Shown: piece after piece, positions 3,093 through 16,787 of the stretch | How positions within the stretch are numbered: position 1 is the stretch's first letter | Layout: each line of letters begins with the position of its first letter | From: Elusimicrobiota bacterium | Lineage (GTDB): Bacteria; Elusimicrobiota; Elusimicrobia; UBA1565 | Length of the DNA stretch: 16,787 bases | Assembly: GCA_043819795.1 (NCBI GenBank) | Contig: JBDREN010000072.1 | Span: 1 to 16,787 of the forward strand | Reading direction: 5' to 3' | Made by a program: the position numbers and the translations under genes | The notes under the pieces: generated by a model | What the model was told of the DNA's origin: nothing | Databases searched by the model: none | The model's input: only the letters and a program-made list of their open reading frames with translations

Positions 3093-3147
3093 CTGGGTCC
3101 ATGGGCCCAGATCCCTTGGGCCAACGAGGCCCGCGGATTCTGGGCCC
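3093..3147. promoter_or_regulatory. GGGCCC-box cluster upstream of gene 2, including near-perfect 18-bp palindrome CTGGGTCCATGGGCCCAG (3093-3110)
   Basis: Exact GGGCCC at 3103 and 3142; near matches at 3095, 3118 and 3127. Confidence 0.5.
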
Positions 3148-11215: not shown

Positions 11216-11303
11216 ATGGGCCCATAAAGCCCTGGGCCCATTACCTGCCCCGCGCTGACCGAAAGACTCAACCCGCTCGCGGGCATCCCGCTATCCTATT
11301 GAC
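11216..11303 (+). promoter_or_regulatory. Promoter region of gene 3: ATGGGCCCAT (11216-11225), TGGGCCCATT (11233-11242), and -10 TATCCT (11292-11297) 6 nt before the GTG
   Basis: Colinear with the gene 5 upstream region and shares TATYCTATTGAC-GTG. No Shine-Dalgarno. Confidence 0.55.
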
Positions 11304-12569
11304 GTGCCACGCCACGAGTGGGCGAAACGCCATGCGGCCGCGACGCTTTGCGCGGCCTTGACCCTGAGCGCTCCCGGTCCGTGCGTCTACGAGGCCTGCG
11401 CCGCGCAGATCGCGGGCGCGCTCAACGCGGGCGCTGGGCAGGCGGGGTTCGCGTCCGGCGCGGCCGCCGGAGCCGGCGCACTCGTCCCGGGCTCGATCAG
11501 CGCTCCCCTTGGCGACGTCTATTCCGCGCCAAAGGCCCTGCGCAGCGGCCTGCCGGCCGCCTCCGCTGTCGACGTCACGATTTCTCCCGTCGGAGCCCCG
11601 GCAAAAGCCGCGCGCCCCGCGGCACCGGCCGCCAACGCCGCTCCGAAGGGCGTCCGGCACGGCGCCCCCGCCGGGGTCGACGCCGGCAGGATCGGGAAGC
11701 CGCTGCTTGAACGGCGCGCGGGCGCCGAGCAGGCTCCCGGAGAATTCCTCCGCGTCCTGCGCCGCCGGATGCGCGCCGGACCGGCTTCCAGTGCGGCGCC
11801 GGCCTCCAATAGTCCCGGCGGCCGTTCCGCGGAGACGCCCGAGAGATGGCTCACTCCCTCGGCCGAGACCCTCGGCTCCGCCTCCGCCTCCAAGGAGTGG
11901 GGCCGGCGCAGCTTCGCGGCGCTGAGGGGGGAGAATACCGGCGCGAGCCGGGGACCGGCGGCGACTGTTGACGCGCGTTCGGTTCGAGCTTCCGCGAGCG
12001 TCCGGAGATTCTCGTCGCTGAGACCCGCGCCGGCCGCCAAGGCCGCTCCCGTCGAGGACGCGCCCACGGTGCGGGTCGACGATGCTCCGGTGCGGACCGC
12101 GTCCGCGGCGAAGAAGCTCCCGTCCCTCATGAGCAAGGAGAGCCTGATCCCCGCCGCCGCGTCGATCGGCGTCTTCCTGCTTTTGAAGCTCGGGGTGGGC
12201 GCGGGCATGCTCGCCCCCGTCGCCACGACGTGGCCGGTCCTGCTTTCGGTCAACCTCGTCGTCGGGATCGGGGTGCGCATCGGACTGAAGCTGTGGAAGA
12301 AGCGGCAGGCCGGGAATGAGGAGAAGGGCGACGACGCGCCCGCCGATCTTTCTCCAGTGACCCTGGAGCCGGCGGCGGCGGCCGAGCGGCTCGCCGCGCT
12401 CCCGAAAGGCAAGAAGCCGGCCGAGGTCTCGGTATTCGATTTCGGGTACGCCGGGTTCAGGAGCTTGCCGGTCACCGACGAGCTCATCGAGCAGGTACGC
12501 GCCGGGCTCTACAGCGTCACGACCGACGATACCGGCGTCTTCTACCTCGTCCCCGCGACGGCTTCCTAG
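11304..12569 (+). CDS. 421-aa hypothetical membrane protein; N-terminal ~210 aa paralogous to gene 5
   Basis: Signal-like N-terminus (LCAALTLSAPGPCVYEACAAQ), Ala/Pro-rich linker, hydrophobic hairpin at 12144-12296 followed by WKKR, and a small C-terminal domain. The start and frame are supported by homology to the 13882 ORF. Confidence 0.8.
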   Translation: MPRHEWAKRHAAATLCAALTLSAPGPCVYEACAAQIAGALNAGAGQAGFASGAAAGAGALVPGSISAPLGDVYSAPKALRSGLPAASAVDVTISPVGAPAKAARPAAPAANAAPKGVRHGAPAGVDAGRIGKPLLERRAGAEQAPGEFLRVLRRRMRAGPASSAAPASNSPGGRSAETPERWLTPSAETLGSASASKEWGRRSFAALRGENTGASRGPAATVDARSVRASASVRRFSSLRPAPAAKAAPVEDAPTVRVDDAPVRTASAAKKLPSLMSKESLIPAAASIGVFLLLKLGVGAGMLAPVATTWPVLLSVNLVVGIGVRIGLKLWKKRQAGNEEKGDDAPADLSPVTLEPAAAAERLAALPKGKKPAEVSVFDFGYAGFRSLPVTDELIEQVRAGLYSVTTDDTGVFYLVPATAS

Positions 12570-12581
12570 GCCCTTCGTCCC

Positions 12582-12597
12582 GGGCCCGCGCGGGCCC
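12582..12597. promoter_or_regulatory. Perfect 16-bp palindrome GGGCCCGCGCGGGCCC (two GGGCCC boxes) upstream of the RAYT-like gene promoter
   Basis: Read directly. It could also act as a hairpin after the gene 3 stop. Confidence 0.45.
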
Positions 12598-12627
12598 AAA
12601 GACCGCCCGACGCCTCCCCAAAGGCCC

Positions 12628-12656
12628 TTGCCCCCAAGACCGGGCTTTCGTACCAT
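12628..12656 (+). promoter_or_regulatory. Putative sigma70-type promoter TTGCCC - 17 bp - TACCAT
   Basis: Same GGCCCTTGCCC-N17-TACnnT layout as 45-78. Downstream SD AGGAGAGG (12705-12712) precedes ATG 12718. Confidence 0.6.
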
Positions 12657-12669
12657 GCCTCTACATTAG

Positions 12670-12685
12670 GTGTCAGGCATTTAGA
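12670..12685 (+). repeat. Left copy of a 16-bp inverted repeat flanking the RAYT-like gene (GTGTCAGGCATTTAGA)
   Basis: 14/16 identical to the reverse complement of 13769-13784 (GTGCCAGGCTTTTAGA). Confidence 0.7.
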
Positions 12686-12717
12686 TTTACACATTTCGAG
12701 CAATAGGAGAGGCCGCC

Positions 12718-13635
12718 ATGGGTCGTCCGCACCGCATCCAGTTCCCGGGAGCCTGCTACCACGTCGTGCTCCGGGGCAACAACCACCGGGACATATTCCT
12801 CACGAACCAGGACAGGCGCTGCTTTCTCTCGCTTTTGCGCGGGTACAAGGACCGCTACCGGATCAAGGTCTACGCCTACTGTCTGATGCGGGGCCACGCG
12901 CAGCTGCTCCTGGAGACGGCCGAGTCGAACCTCTCGAAGGTCATGCAGGGCTTCAACACGGCGTACACGAAGTACTTCAATCAGCAGCACAACACCGCGG
13001 GCCACGTGTTTTCGGGCCGTTACAAGGCCTTGCTCGTCGACAAGGCCAACCACCTGCTCCAGCTGACGCGCCATATCCACCTCGCTCCAGTGCGCGACGG
13101 CCTTCGGGATAAGCCCTGGCGCTACCAGTGGTCCTCGTGCCCGGCTTATGTCGAGGCGGAGAGCCGCGAGCCTTTCGTGGACTCTGAGGCGGTCCTGCGC
13201 GCCTTCGCGCGCAACCGCTTGAAGCAGTCGGTCCGGTACCTGCAGTACGTCAAGCGGCGTCCGAAACGGACCGAGGCCGAGCTCCCGCTGGTGAGCGGCC
13301 TTTTCGTGGGGAGCCGGGAGTTCGCCGAGTCCGTCCGGAAGCGCTCCGGGTCCTCCGGCGGCGCGGCCGGCGCCGGGACGGACAGCTCGCGGTCCGCCGC
13401 GGACGCGAAGGCGATCCTGGCCGAGGTCTCGAAAAAGCACGGGATAGACCAGGAAAAGCTCTTCGGCCGCGGCCAGTGGCGGGAGGTCTCAGCGGTCCGC
13501 AAGGAAGCCATCTACCGCATGTGGAAGGAGGCCGGGATGGGGGTCACGGAGATCGGGCGCATCTTCAAGCGCACCCCCTCGGCCGTGAGCCAGCTCATCC
13601 GGTCCATGGAAGTCTCCCGCGTCTCCCGGAACTGA
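12718..13635 (+). CDS. REP-associated tyrosine transposase (RAYT, Y1_Tnp/IS200-like HUH fold) homolog with C-terminal DnaA-domain-IV/TrpR-like HTH; predicted catalytically inactive
   Basis: Family-typical segments MGRPHRIQFPGACYHVVLRGNN..DIF, AYCLM, YFNQQHNTAGHVFSGRYKALLVD, Y.WSS. HUH site reads GHAQLL (normally NHxHLL). Catalytic helix reads RHIHLAPVRDG (normally RYIHxNPVRAG). The C-terminal ILAEVSKKHGI...RKEAIY...MGVTEIGRIFKRTPSAVS (from ~13405) matches the DnaA C-terminal HTH pattern. Good SD. Confidence 0.9.
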   Translation: MGRPHRIQFPGACYHVVLRGNNHRDIFLTNQDRRCFLSLLRGYKDRYRIKVYAYCLMRGHAQLLLETAESNLSKVMQGFNTAYTKYFNQQHNTAGHVFSGRYKALLVDKANHLLQLTRHIHLAPVRDGLRDKPWRYQWSSCPAYVEAESREPFVDSEAVLRAFARNRLKQSVRYLQYVKRRPKRTEAELPLVSGLFVGSREFAESVRKRSGSSGGAAGAGTDSSRSAADAKAILAEVSKKHGIDQEKLFGRGQWREVSAVRKEAIYRMWKEAGMGVTEIGRIFKRTPSAVSQLIRSMEVSRVSRN

Positions 13636-13768: not shown

Positions 13769-13784
13769 TCTAAAAGCCTGGCAC
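13769..13784 (-). repeat. Right copy of the 16-bp inverted repeat flanking the RAYT-like gene
   Basis: TCTAAAAGCCTGGCAC on +; its reverse complement matches 12670-12685 at 14/16. Confidence 0.7.
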
Positions 13785-13786
13785 TT

Positions 13787-13881
13787 GGGCCCTTGGTCCC
13801 ATATCAATATGGGCCCATTTTTCAACAAAAAATGACCTTATGGCTCATCCCCTCCGACGGGGTTGGTGGTATTCTATTGAC
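13787..13881 (+). promoter_or_regulatory. Promoter region of gene 5: GGGCCC (13787), ATGGGCCCAT (13809-13818), and -10 TATTCT (13870-13875) 6 nt before the GTG
   Basis: Colinear with 11216-11303. No Shine-Dalgarno. Confidence 0.55.
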
Positions 13882-16787
13882 GTGATACAGAACGCGCGCG
13901 TAAAAAAGGCCGTCGCCACCGCGATCTGCGCCGCTCTGTTCTTTACAGCTCCCGGCCTTCCCGTCTACCAGGTCCTCGCCGCCCAGGTCACCGCGGTCAA
14001 TGTCGCCGCGCCGCAGGGCAGCTCGATCCCCGGCGCGGTCTCCGGCGCCCACATCCAGTCGATCGGCTCCATCAGCGCCCCCATCGGCGGCCGCGTCTCG
14101 GCGCCCGGCGCGCTGCGCAGCAGCCTCCCGGACGCGGCCTCCATCGGCGTCGCGATCTCCCCCGCGCAGGCCGCGCCCGCTTCGCTGCAGGCGGCGTTGG
14201 AGCCGGCGCTCCTGAGCGGGCGGGTCGGCAAGGCCATCCTGGAGCGGGCCGCGAAGGCCGAGGATGCGCCCCAGGGCCTGTTCCAGATCCTGCTCCACCG
14301 GGTGCGCGGCAGCCAGGCCGGACAAGCCGCGGCCACGCCCGCGGAGCACGCCGCCATCGGGGCCGCCGAAAAGTGGCTCGCGCCTTCGGCCAAGACTCTC
14401 GGCTCCGCCTCCTCCTCCAAGGCTTGGGGACTGAGGAGCTTCTCGGAGCTGCGCGGGGAGAGCGTGCACGCGGCCGCTTCCCGCGGCGCGCTCCCCGTAT
14501 TCGCGGGCTCGGCGCGGCAGGCCGGAGCCCTGAAGCCCGCACCGGACGCCGGCGGGATGCGGAAGGCCGGCGACCACGTGGCCCGCGGCTACGCCAAGTT
14601 CCCGGTCCGGGCCCGCAATATGACGCCCGAGAGCATGCTCGCGGGCAAGGCCAAGGCCCGGAAGCATGCCCGCAAGATCGCTCGTGACGCGCGCCTGGTG
14701 CGGGTCTCCATCAACCTCGACAGCTCCAAGGCCCGCTGGGTCTACCTCTTCCACTCCCGCGAGAAGGGCAAGGTCATCACGGTCTACTCCAACGGCGAGA
14801 CCAAGGTCCGCGGCGACCGCAGGAGCCAGAAGGGCGCGGCCGGCTCCAAGAACCTGACCCCGCTGCGCACCTCCCAGACCCTCTGGAACGCGCGGCTGGC
14901 CAAGCTCGGCGGGCTGCAGGAAGCCTACAACCAGCTCAAGGCCGAGACGCATTGGTTCCGGCCCGTGCGCGTCTCGATCGTCTCCAAGTGGCACAGCGAC
15001 CCGGTGTTCGCCTTCATCGACGCCGGCGGACGCGTGCGCGAGATCGCGGCCGTGAAGCCCCGGTCGCCCGCGGCCGCGGCTCCCGCGAAGGGCGCGGCGG
15101 ACGCGAAGGCGCCCGGCGAGGTCGCGCCTCCGGCCGAGCGGCCGGCGCCTCCGGAGGCCCGGGCGCCTCCGGGGGGTGAGGGCCGGCAGGCCTCCAAACC
15201 CGCCAAGAGCCGTCCTCACCTGGTTGAGGACTTTTTCGGTTTTAGGAGGGTCCGCGGCTACAAGCACGACTCCTCGCTCAAGCGCCTTCCCCACGACGCG
15301 GACACCGCGCGGATCATCGACCAGATCGCCAGGCAGTTCAACATCGACCGCGCCCGCGTCCTCGATCTCGGCGAGCGCTACGCCCTGAGCGCCGCCTCCG
15401 ACCGGAAGTCCTGGCTCGCGGTCTACGAGCGCCTGCAGCGCGAGAACCGGGCTGAGCGCGACCACCTGGACCAGAAGAAGTACCAGGGCAGCCTCCTTGG
15501 CGAGGCCCTCAGCCGCCTGTTCGTCCGGCTGGGCTGGAGGAAGAAGGTCTCGGAGGCCGGCTTCCGCAAGCTGGAGAACCGGCGGTATCCCGAGGGCATG
15601 AAGGGCCTGCTGATCCGGGCGCTCGAGGTGCACAAGCACGCCTTCGGGATGTTCCGGTTCGTCTACCACGTCTTCGACGCATTCTTCTTCGGCTACTTCC
15701 GCCGCTCATCCTCCTTCGAGCTGCTCCACAGCACCGAGGACTACCTGACGCTGCGCGCCGACCTGGTCCGGGACAAGGCCCTCGCCGATGGGCGCATGAG
15801 CTCGCTGTTGGAGGAGGAGCTTCCCACGGCCGAGAAGTCGCTGGAGGCGGCGCTGAGCGTCCAGTTCCATCGCGGGCTGAGCTTCTCGGACCGGGTGAAC
15901 GCCTCCGCGATCGGCCGCTGGACCCGCTACCCGGTGCGGCTCGTGCTCGCCCCCCTGACCCAGTTCGTGTGGCGCCGCGCCACCCTGGCGCTTTTCAGCG
16001 CCGTGGCCATGGGCCTGGTGGCGGGCCTGGTCCCTCTGCCGTTCTTGTCGATCCACCTGACGGCGCTGCCGGTGCTCGGCCCCGCGCTCGAGGGCCTGGC
16101 CCACGGCGCCCCGATGCTCGCCTCCCAGGTCCCCTTCATCGGCGGGTCCTTGGCCAACATCACGGGCAGCGCCCTCAACGCCCTGGTGGAGGGGCTCTCG
16201 GTCGGGTCGCTCGTCCAGACCTTCACGCTCTCCTCCATGCTGACCTTCCCGGCCGCCGTCAAGCAGCGGCTCATGGAGCGGCGCGGCTTCAACCTGCGCA
16301 CGCCGCATGCGCTGAGCCGGGCGTTCTTCACCGGCGTGCTCGGGACCGCGGTGAGCTGGACCTTCTGGGCGCAGAACCTGAAGTCCTTCTTCGGCCTGAT
16401 CGTCATCGGCGCCGAGATCGAGGGCGTCATGACCTACGCGGCCGAGACCGACGCCTTTATCAGCCCGGCCTACCAGGCCCTGACGGGGCACCAGTTCAAG
16501 CTCTTCGAGAGCATCGGCGCGGCCATCGAGCGCCCGCAGGGCCGGAGCCCCATCCCCTTCGGCGGCGCGATCACGTGGGGCAACGCCCTCATCTACAAGC
16601 TTCAGAACCTGATCGGCTTCAACCTGACCGACGAGGTCTACCGGATCGTCCACGGCGCGGCCTACGGCTCCTATGACGGCGCGGTCTCGGAGGCGATGGT
16701 CCAGGCGCGCCACGCGGCGCCGGGCGCGTCCCGCGCGAACGCGGGCGCGTCGGTGGTGGCCGGCGTCGTGGGCGCGGCCGGCCACAC
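13882..16787 (+). CDS. Large (>968 aa, 3'-truncated by the window) signal-peptide, multi-pass membrane hypothetical protein; absent from the supplied ORF track
   Basis: Hand-translated from GTG 13882 (MIQNARVKKAVATAICAALFFTAPGLPVYQVLAAQV...) with no stop to the window end and strong GC3 bias. The N-terminus is paralogous to gene 3. Two PepSY-like units at ~14620-15055 and several hydrophobic segments at ~15940-16420. Confidence 0.9.
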   Translation, partial: MIQNARVKKAVATAICAALFFTAPGLPVYQVLAAQVTAVNVAAPQGSSIPGAVSGAHIQSIGSISAPIGGRVSAPGALRSSLPDAASIGVAISPAQAAPASLQAALEPALLSGRVGKAILERAAKAEDAPQGLFQILLHRVRGSQAGQAAATPAEHAAIGAAEKWLAPSAKTLGSASSSKAWGLRSFSELRGESVHAAASRGALPVFAGSARQAGALKPAPDAGGMRKAGDHVARGYAKFPVRARNMTPESMLAGKAKARKHARKIARDARLVRVSINLDSSKARWVYLFHSREKGKVITVYSNGETKVRGDRRSQKGAAGSKNLTPLRTSQTLWNARLAKLGGLQEAYNQLKAETHWFRPVRVSIVSKWHSDPVFAFIDAGGRVREIAAVKPRSPAAAAPAKGAADAKAPGEVAPPAERPAPPEARAPPGGEGRQASKPAKSRPHLVEDFFGFRRVRGYKHDSSLKRLPHDADTARIIDQIARQFNIDRARVLDLGERYALSAASDRKSWLAVYERLQRENRAERDHLDQKKYQGSLLGEALSRLFVRLGWRKKVSEAGFRKLENRRYPEGMKGLLIRALEVHKHAFGMFRFVYHVFDAFFFGYFRRSSSFELLHSTEDYLTLRADLVRDKALADGRMSSLLEEELPTAEKSLEAALSVQFHRGLSFSDRVNASAIGRWTRYPVRLVLAPLTQFVWRRATLALFSAVAMGLVAGLVPLPFLSIHLTALPVLGPALEGLAHGAPMLASQVPFIGGSLANITGSALNALVEGLSVGSLVQTFTLSSMLTFPAAVKQRLMERRGFNLRTPHALSRAFFTGVLGTAVSWTFWAQNLKSFFGLIVIGAEIEGVMTYAAETDAFISPAYQALTGHQFKLFESIGAAIERPQGRSPIPFGGAITWGNALIYKLQNLIGFNLTDEVYRIVHGAAYGSYDGAVSEAMVQARHAAPGASRANAGASVVAGVVGAAGH

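Follow-up and report, generated by a model that had tools for sequence, protein, structure and literature searches.

The DNA stretch analysed here (the window) comprises 16,787 nucleotides of contig JBDREN010000072.1 from an Elusimicrobiota bacterium (GenBank assembly GCA_043819795.1; genome G000 in our numbering). It contains an open reading frame of 305 amino acids (aa) that is a TIRYT-type Y1 transposase gene with a DnaA-like helix-turn-helix (HTH) domain, and three of the four catalytic residues are absent from its product. Table 1 lists the gene, its motifs and the features around it.

Table 1. Features of the window that bear on the dead transposase gene
Feature	Positions	Strand	Remarks
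Catalytically dead TIRYT-derived gene	12718-13635	+	305 aa; Y1/HUH fold 1-145, linker, DnaA-C-like HTH 228-299
Shine-Dalgarno sequence AGGAGAGG	12705-12712	+	
Degenerate HUH motif, H60-A-Q62	12895-12903	+	codons CAC GCG CAG; both histidines in 0/63 orthologues
Degenerate YxxxN motif, H119-I-H-L-A123	13072-13086	+	nucleophile and third metal-ligand positions
Predicted recognition helix region, RTPSAVSQ	13570-13593	+	nearly invariant across the clade
Left transposon-end tip GGTGTCAGGCATTT	12669-12682	+	12 bp behind candidate -10 TACCAT (12651-12656); predicted autoregulatory operator
Right transposon-end tip AAAAGCCTGGCACT	13772-13785	+	directly ahead of the promoter of giant gene K0; predicted operator
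GGGCCC box	13786-13817	+	palindrome TRGGYC-N4-GRCCYA plus inverted half-site; class-wide promoter element
Candidate -10 TATTCT	13868-13884	+	six bases ahead of the GTG start; same spacing in orthologous loci
Giant membrane/secreted protein gene K0, 5' part	13882-16787	+	conserved downstream neighbour; GTG start
Short paralogue of the K0 N-terminus	11304-12569	+	sequence repeats D2, D3; cluster K0
Giant signal-peptide protein gene K2, 2,621 aa	3199-11064	+	weak ResIII (helicase-like) match; frequent upstream neighbour

Residues 13 to 120 of the protein matched the Pfam family Y1_Tnp (PF01797) with an E value of 6e-12 and 46.3 bits, passing the cut-off of 23, and residues 231 to 295 matched Bac_DnaA_C (PF08299) with an E value of 2e-6 and 28.3 bits, under the cut-off of 31.5. 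The NCBIfam model REP_Tyr_transpos (NF047646) gave 58.8 bits and did not reach its cut-off of 80, and a search of the sequence against solved structures returned no match at E 0.1. The AlphaFold model (mean pLDDT 87) found TnpA-REP (4ER8) as its best Foldseek match and also matched the DNA-binding domain of DnaA (3PVP; rmsd 1.8 over 76 columns). A previous sequence-only reading of the window had described the reading frame, the Shine-Dalgarno sequence and the C-terminal HTH as intact, and our results agreed on all three points, the Pfam support for the HTH being below its cut-off.

Among the TnpA-REP proteins, those that combine a Y1 domain with a DnaA-like HTH are placed in subclass 2.1.2 (Quentin et al. 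2018, PMC6006769), probably the TIRYT/TIRtron group of Di Nocera et al. (2013, PMC3733652). The HTH is thus an ancestral feature of TIRYTs, and the idea that it was added to the protein later was not supported.

Catalytic residues and inheritance of the gene

The metal ligands of these enzymes are two histidines and the asparagine four residues past the catalytic tyrosine (PMC3479197, PMC6006769). The sequence-only reading had reported degenerate HUH and tyrosine motifs, and the codons confirmed H60-A-Q62 as well as H119 (CAT, 13072-13074). The loss of the asparagine (A123; GCT, 13084-13086) had not been stressed in that reading, although this is the one ligand missing from every orthologue.

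We compared 63 distinct orthologue sequences (the clade) with 197 more distant homologues (the outgroup, in which two clade members still remain). All four catalytic residues were found in 189 of the 197 outgroup sequences. In contrast, none of the 63 orthologues had both histidines of the HxH motif, and none had Asn123. Tyr119 was present in 41 orthologues, His62 in 21 and His60 in 4, so that H60 of the window protein is atypical, and His121 was invariant. Positions 60, 62, 119 and 123 held 11, 9, 7 and 12 different residues, respectively. The absence of HxH and Asn123, with Tyr119 retained in 41 of the 63 sequences, indicated that the lesion common to the clade is the loss of the metal ligands and that tyrosine loss is sporadic. 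Thus, the HUH change was clade-wide, and the Tyr-to-His change was rejected as the defining lesion of the clade. Recent decay or a sequence error was also rejected, as no orthologue retained HxH or contained internal stops.

As a reference for these changes, we used 47 positions with a conservation of 85% or more among 189 non-redundant outgroup homologues. The strongest collapse in the clade was at H15, R19, M57, N59, H60, H62, Y119 and N123; I26, K103, Y112, L116, A127 and F177 had collapsed as well, and R3, R6, Y14, G20, D32, G95, G100, R101, W138 and S140 held at 98 to 100%. The concentration of changes on the active site, which the sequence-only reading had noted in the single protein, exceeds chance. 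Five full-length TIRYT-like proteins outside the clade (P0012, P0056, P0064, P0121 and P0130) also had degenerate catalytic motifs. They are possibly independent domestications, and the conversion of TIRYT transposases to regulators may be recurrent.

Single matches with 51 to 72% identity (E < 1e-80) were found in 42 of 60 relatives, and their named sources were Elusimicrobia or Elusimicrobiota with the one exception of Endomicrobium. When 401 Elusimicrobiota genomes were sampled, 44 had a match at E < 1e-50, with exactly one copy each and no internal stops. All but one of these 44 genomes belonged to the gene's own order; by family (our labels), matches were found in 9/9 genomes of f1, 33/48 of f2, 0/2 of f3, 1/1 of f11 and none of any other family. 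Three more f3 genomes matched in the search of relatives. Ten gene-less genomes were searched with the clade alignment for a hidden, diverged dead orthologue, and none was found among the 13 matches, all of which had Y---NP and 12 of which had HxH (the other was cut at the N-terminus).

A quick tree of 100 rows, with SH-aLRT as its only support, grouped the genera g2, g3, g7, g8, g11, g17 and g26 and the family f2 (support 99), and the f1 group (support 91) included one f3 row (G026). The intact protein P0006, the nearest intact homologue with 47% identity, was sister to the clade. The orthologue tree largely tracks host taxonomy.

The sequence-only reading had anticipated a dN/dS below 1, conserved synteny and no multiplication of the gene. 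The dN/dS was 0.037 to 0.352 in 22 pairs (Nei-Gojobori; the high GC content makes dS rough), and the first downstream gene belonged to the K0 cluster in 40 of the 52 loci with a called downstream neighbour, although this cluster was built by single linkage and may include paralogues. Both expectations were thus borne out, as was that of a single copy. Clade pairs matched at 55 to 72% core identity had 58% identity in the HTH and 76% in its recognition helix; for outgroup pairs matched likewise, the values were 28% and 35%. The HTH is under added constraint, and its specificity looks frozen. The Y1 core was as conserved as the HTH. Taken together, we consider it almost certain that the gene has been domesticated as a host gene.

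End tips at the locus and at unlinked promoters

The inverted repeat that flanks the gene is a retained 14-bp transposon-end tip with the consensus TWAAGYCTGRCAC, and it is the same as the tip at which the intact TIRYTs of the window genome end. A weight matrix trained on the gene's own flanks found the tip in 90 of 113 orthologue flanks versus 2.4% in shuffles. Among the 49 orthologous loci with an upstream tip next to the gene's promoter, the tip was direct in 35 and inverted in 14; the downstream tip lay just ahead of the K0 promoter. The promoter position at the window locus (TACCAT) was itself placed by sequence. The retention of a 14-bp end despite diverged synonymous sites implied a function, and the repeat, which the sequence-only reading had proposed as a plausible operator, behaves like one. 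In one genome (G381; L320:2540-2640, reverse strand), the gene is deleted and both end tips remain, 85 bp apart.

Forty extra exact matches of the tip pattern were drawn from the first 150 entries in a listing of about 300, and none of the 40 fell within a called gene. The same neighbouring gene turned up in eight genomes. This was a 2,750-aa synthase with the domains KS-AT-ACP3-KR-DH, whose best NCBIfam match was PfaA, below the cut-off. Of 20 orthologous synthase loci, 15 lay behind their own promoter and five behind fabI. At least one site was found in 14 of the 15 own-promoter loci and two or more in 13, spanning nine genera, and no shuffle (0%) scored above 12 bits. In nearly all synthase promoters, as read by eye, a site ended 6 to 11 bp before a TTGAC -35 element. 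A paralogous synthase had the site in none of 10 loci. Synthases of this PfaA-like type (2,700 to 2,900 aa) were seen with fabI and a carboxyltransferase in G001 (L206:992-9241) and in G020 (L207).

Two other genes were preceded by such sites. A secreted-protein gene had twin sites 64 to 66 bp apart in 19 of the 20 genus-g17 loci with upstream DNA, and hpnJ had a site between the -10 element and the ribosome site in 16 of 30 loci. The spacings of paired tips were 52, 64-66, 74-80 or 97 bp. By inspection, the twin-site spacings corresponded to 4.95 to 9.24 helical turns, most of them within 0.3 of a whole turn and one at 7.62. In other families of the class, the exact tip pattern mostly occurred zero or one time per genome.

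The sites were also followed in genomes without the gene. G401 and G044 kept K2, K0 and the GGGCCC box, and both the gene and the tip were gone. In G018, the gene was absent and there was no site upstream of fabI at the synthase operon promoter. G381 was the only g17 genome without a twin site at the secreted-protein gene, and the hpnJ site was absent in G381, G058 and G054. Genomes that have the gene (n = 50) contained on average 2.9 exact matches of the pattern, and those that do not (n = 19) contained 1.05.

Several observations weigh against assigning these sites to the dead transposase. The genomes in the last count are not independent of one another and their home-locus sites are included, and the tip matrix, as stated, was trained on the gene's own flanks. 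The tips of G381 persist at the emptied home locus. Sites were present where the gene was not found in G020 (upstream of fabI at the synthase operon; 88% complete, K0 and K2 also not found), in G009 (at the synthase promoter; 80% complete) and in G033 (at two promoters; the contig breaks just before the locus). The hpnJ site was absent in eight gene-bearing genomes, and the secreted-protein gene had twin sites in none of nine loci of other genera. The window genome is without the synthase and its sites, and one of its six exact extra tips (on C167) lies between a -10 element and a start codon. Finally, since intact TIRYTs and miniature elements with nearly the same tip are abundant, some of the sites may be relics of insertions, and binding by the intact paralogues is conceivable as well. 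The gaps at hpnJ and the confinement of the twin sites to one genus suggested that any regulon would be lineage-specific. At C44:766-1229 of the window genome, the flanking genes are present with neither the synthase nor its operator-like sites between them.

The window genome contains four intact TIRYTs (on C198, C140, C96 and C102), and a nearly identical tip is seen at dozens of ends. In intact ends, a GG-G-CAGGC tip precedes 9-bp repeats that are specific to the family; the dead gene's ends are without these repeats. Dozens of miniature elements of 70 to 120 bp share the intact ends (for example, C24:2448-2533 and C107:12596-12679). Intact ends and miniature elements carry two to three of the subterminal repeats, which differ by family; one of them, TTATGCAAC, resembles a DnaA box, and such repeats are candidate targets of the DnaA-like HTH, for which PMC6006769 saw no matching site. 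Three solitary tips of the window genome (C101:1905-1943, C153:9826-9865 and C192:443) share a 24-bp hairpin-forming extension and perhaps represent a small repeat or RNA family.

Neighbouring genes and GGGCCC boxes

In relatives, the K0 open frames have 3,400 to 5,300 aa with a signal-peptide-like start and hydrophobic segments (L208-L218). K0 had no Pfam match, and a search of 10 genomes from other families did not find it; among the genomes tested, it occurred only in this order. K2 was upstream of the dead transposase gene in 16 of 57 loci, often with a TrkA-type channel in between. Its weak ResIII match recalls the SecA-like domains of giant proteins. Giant membrane proteins with SecA-like domains have been reported mainly from Omnitrophota (10.1101/2023.11.21.568195), and the link of K2 to them is this weak match. 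The short K0 paralogue between K2 and the dead transposase was seen in this genome only among the loci inspected, and its promoter is similar to that of K0. A -10 hexamer 6 to 7 bases before the start codon was observed at 13868-13884, at 11290-11306 and in the orthologous K0 promoters, which suggests leaderless mRNAs for these secreted proteins.

GGGCCC boxes precede four genes of the window (3094-3109, 11217-11240, 12581-12601 and 13786-13817). About 40 promoters of the window genome carry the box, many of them ahead of signal-peptide genes and with extra half-sites. A box matrix gave 47 matches at 18 bits or more versus 11 in shuffled DNA, and 43 of 48 listed matches lay outside called genes, many of them, as read by eye, 70 to 120 bp before genes with signal-peptide-like product starts. 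The tip often adjoins a box, which suggested co-regulation.

The box is found in much of the class Elusimicrobia (f1, f2, f3, f4, f5, f8 and f11) and is nearly absent elsewhere in the phylum. Its exact pattern was present in 98 of 118 f4, 42 of 47 f5 and 5 of 5 g15 genomes and in G020 (30 copies), none with a match to the gene, and some box-bearing genomes were without any candidate homologue. The sequence-only reading had named the boxes as a possible target of the dead transposase. Since they abound in gene-less genomes and stay when the gene and the tip are lost, this proposal is disfavoured; the box is likely the site of another, older factor.

Predicted function, known systems and significance

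The gene encodes a TIRYT-type transposase whose metal-binding residues have been lost, and one order of Elusimicrobia has retained it as a single-copy host gene. We think it probable that the protein is a tip-binding transcription factor acting at its own promoter, at that of the neighbouring giant gene and at distant promoters. The sequence-only reading had proposed a regulator of the secreted-protein locus: domestication was supported, and the likely regulon would reach beyond the locus. The protein would bind what remains of its own transposon end, the tip, in double-stranded DNA, as the free orientation of the tip at the gene's own promoter suggests. Predicted targets are its own gene, the neighbouring giant membrane-protein gene, and distant envelope and lipid promoters. 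Repression would be expected where the tip follows the -10 element (its own gene and hpnJ), and activation or modulation where the tip ends 6 to 11 bp before the -35 element (the fatty-acid synthase). Paired tips could be bridged by an oligomer, as a transposase pairs two ends, and related mobile elements may have carried such pairs to promoters, where they became fixed. Whether the protein is in addition a DNA-looping factor derived from an HUH transposase, with a regulon of end tips at the PfaA-like synthase, the hopanoid-modifying enzyme and the giant envelope proteins, is in our judgement evenly balanced.

It is considerably less likely that the domesticated protein has another target, such as single-stranded DNA, RNA or a role at the nucleoid or in replication, and that the tips are read by another host factor or by intact TIRYT paralogues. 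The Y1 core, which binds single-stranded DNA hairpins in known relatives, is as conserved as the HTH; the sites survive in G381, G020 and G009; and most genomes hold intact paralogues with similar tips. However, the intact paralogues are 28 to 44% identical to the window protein; they vary in the HTH, have subterminal repeats of their own and are a poor fit to sites conserved in nine genera. The rarity of the exact pattern in other families of the class and the retention of the tip on both sides of the gene, in either orientation, also argue against this explanation.

Somewhat less probable still, the protein could sit as a guardian on the ends of active TIRYTs and their miniature derivatives and damp their movement, the promoter sites being incidental. 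The four intact TIRYTs and dozens of similar ends in the window genome speak for this reading. Nevertheless, a guardian leaves unexplained why twin sites keep a fixed spacing from the synthase -35 element in nine genera, and the 9-bp subterminal repeats of active ends are missing at the dead gene.

Residual nicking through a rearranged metal site is very improbable: the tyrosine in 41 orthologues, His62 in 21 and the invariant His121 would allow it, but the four catalytic positions vary freely, helix D of the window protein has no tyrosine, and the gene has neither moved nor multiplied. The least probable reading of all is that the GGGCCC boxes are the protein's binding sites, through which it would control a secreted-protein regulon. 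The presence of boxes before four window genes and at about 40 promoters of the genome speaks for it, but the boxes also occur in f4, f5 and g15 genomes and in G020 without the gene, and they outlast the gene and the tip.

Eukaryotic transposase-derived factors such as FHY3/FAR1 and THAP are regulators, and dispersed transposon ends have been proposed as ready-made sites for them. They are DDE-type and eukaryotic, whereas the window protein derives from a bacterial HUH/Y1 enzyme. In bacteria, TldR is a transposon-encoded nuclease that lost catalysis and became a transcription factor (PMC10705468, PMC13622181); it derives from TnpB (RuvC) and is RNA-guided, whereas the predicted sites of the window protein are transposon ends. 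The dead TIRYT would work like TldR or the eukaryotic factors.

The window protein shares its fold with E. coli TnpA-REP/RAYT (YafM; 4ER8; PMC3479197), and both are transposases retained by the host. However, RAYT is an active nuclease with REP hairpins at its flanks and no HTH; the orthologue flanks contained the terminal inverted repeat tip and the GGGCCC box, and no conserved GTAG-type tagged REP hairpin was seen by eye. With TIRYTs it shares the Y1 core, the C-terminal Bac_DnaA_C-like HTH, a length of about 300 aa and terminal inverted repeats with a GG-GTCAG-type tip. Unlike TIRYTs, it is without HxH (H-A-Q) and YxxxN (H---AP), and its gene is single copy, vertically kept at a fixed locus and flanked by repeats reduced to the 14-bp tip, which also occurs at unlinked promoters. 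The proteins that PMC3733652 and PMC6006769 report on are catalytically complete, and Quentin et al. removed motif-less proteins. No dead TIRYT regulator was described in the literature searched, which covered neither subscription papers nor the supplements of PMC6006769 and PMC3733652, and the term 'RAYT' is absent from the available text of a review on mobile-element exaptation (PMC8987985).

What is new here is the order-wide depth of the gene together with conserved sites at unlinked promoters. The ancestral element family, its dead derivative, the retained ends and the unlinked conserved sites are all visible in one case. The described bacterial precedent is the RNA-guided TnpB, and transposon ends as ready-made operators are familiar in eukaryotes. 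For this uncultured lineage, the analysis names a candidate regulator of giant envelope proteins and lipid synthesis together with its candidate targets, and it suggests that genes annotated as 'transposase' in these genomes include host regulators.
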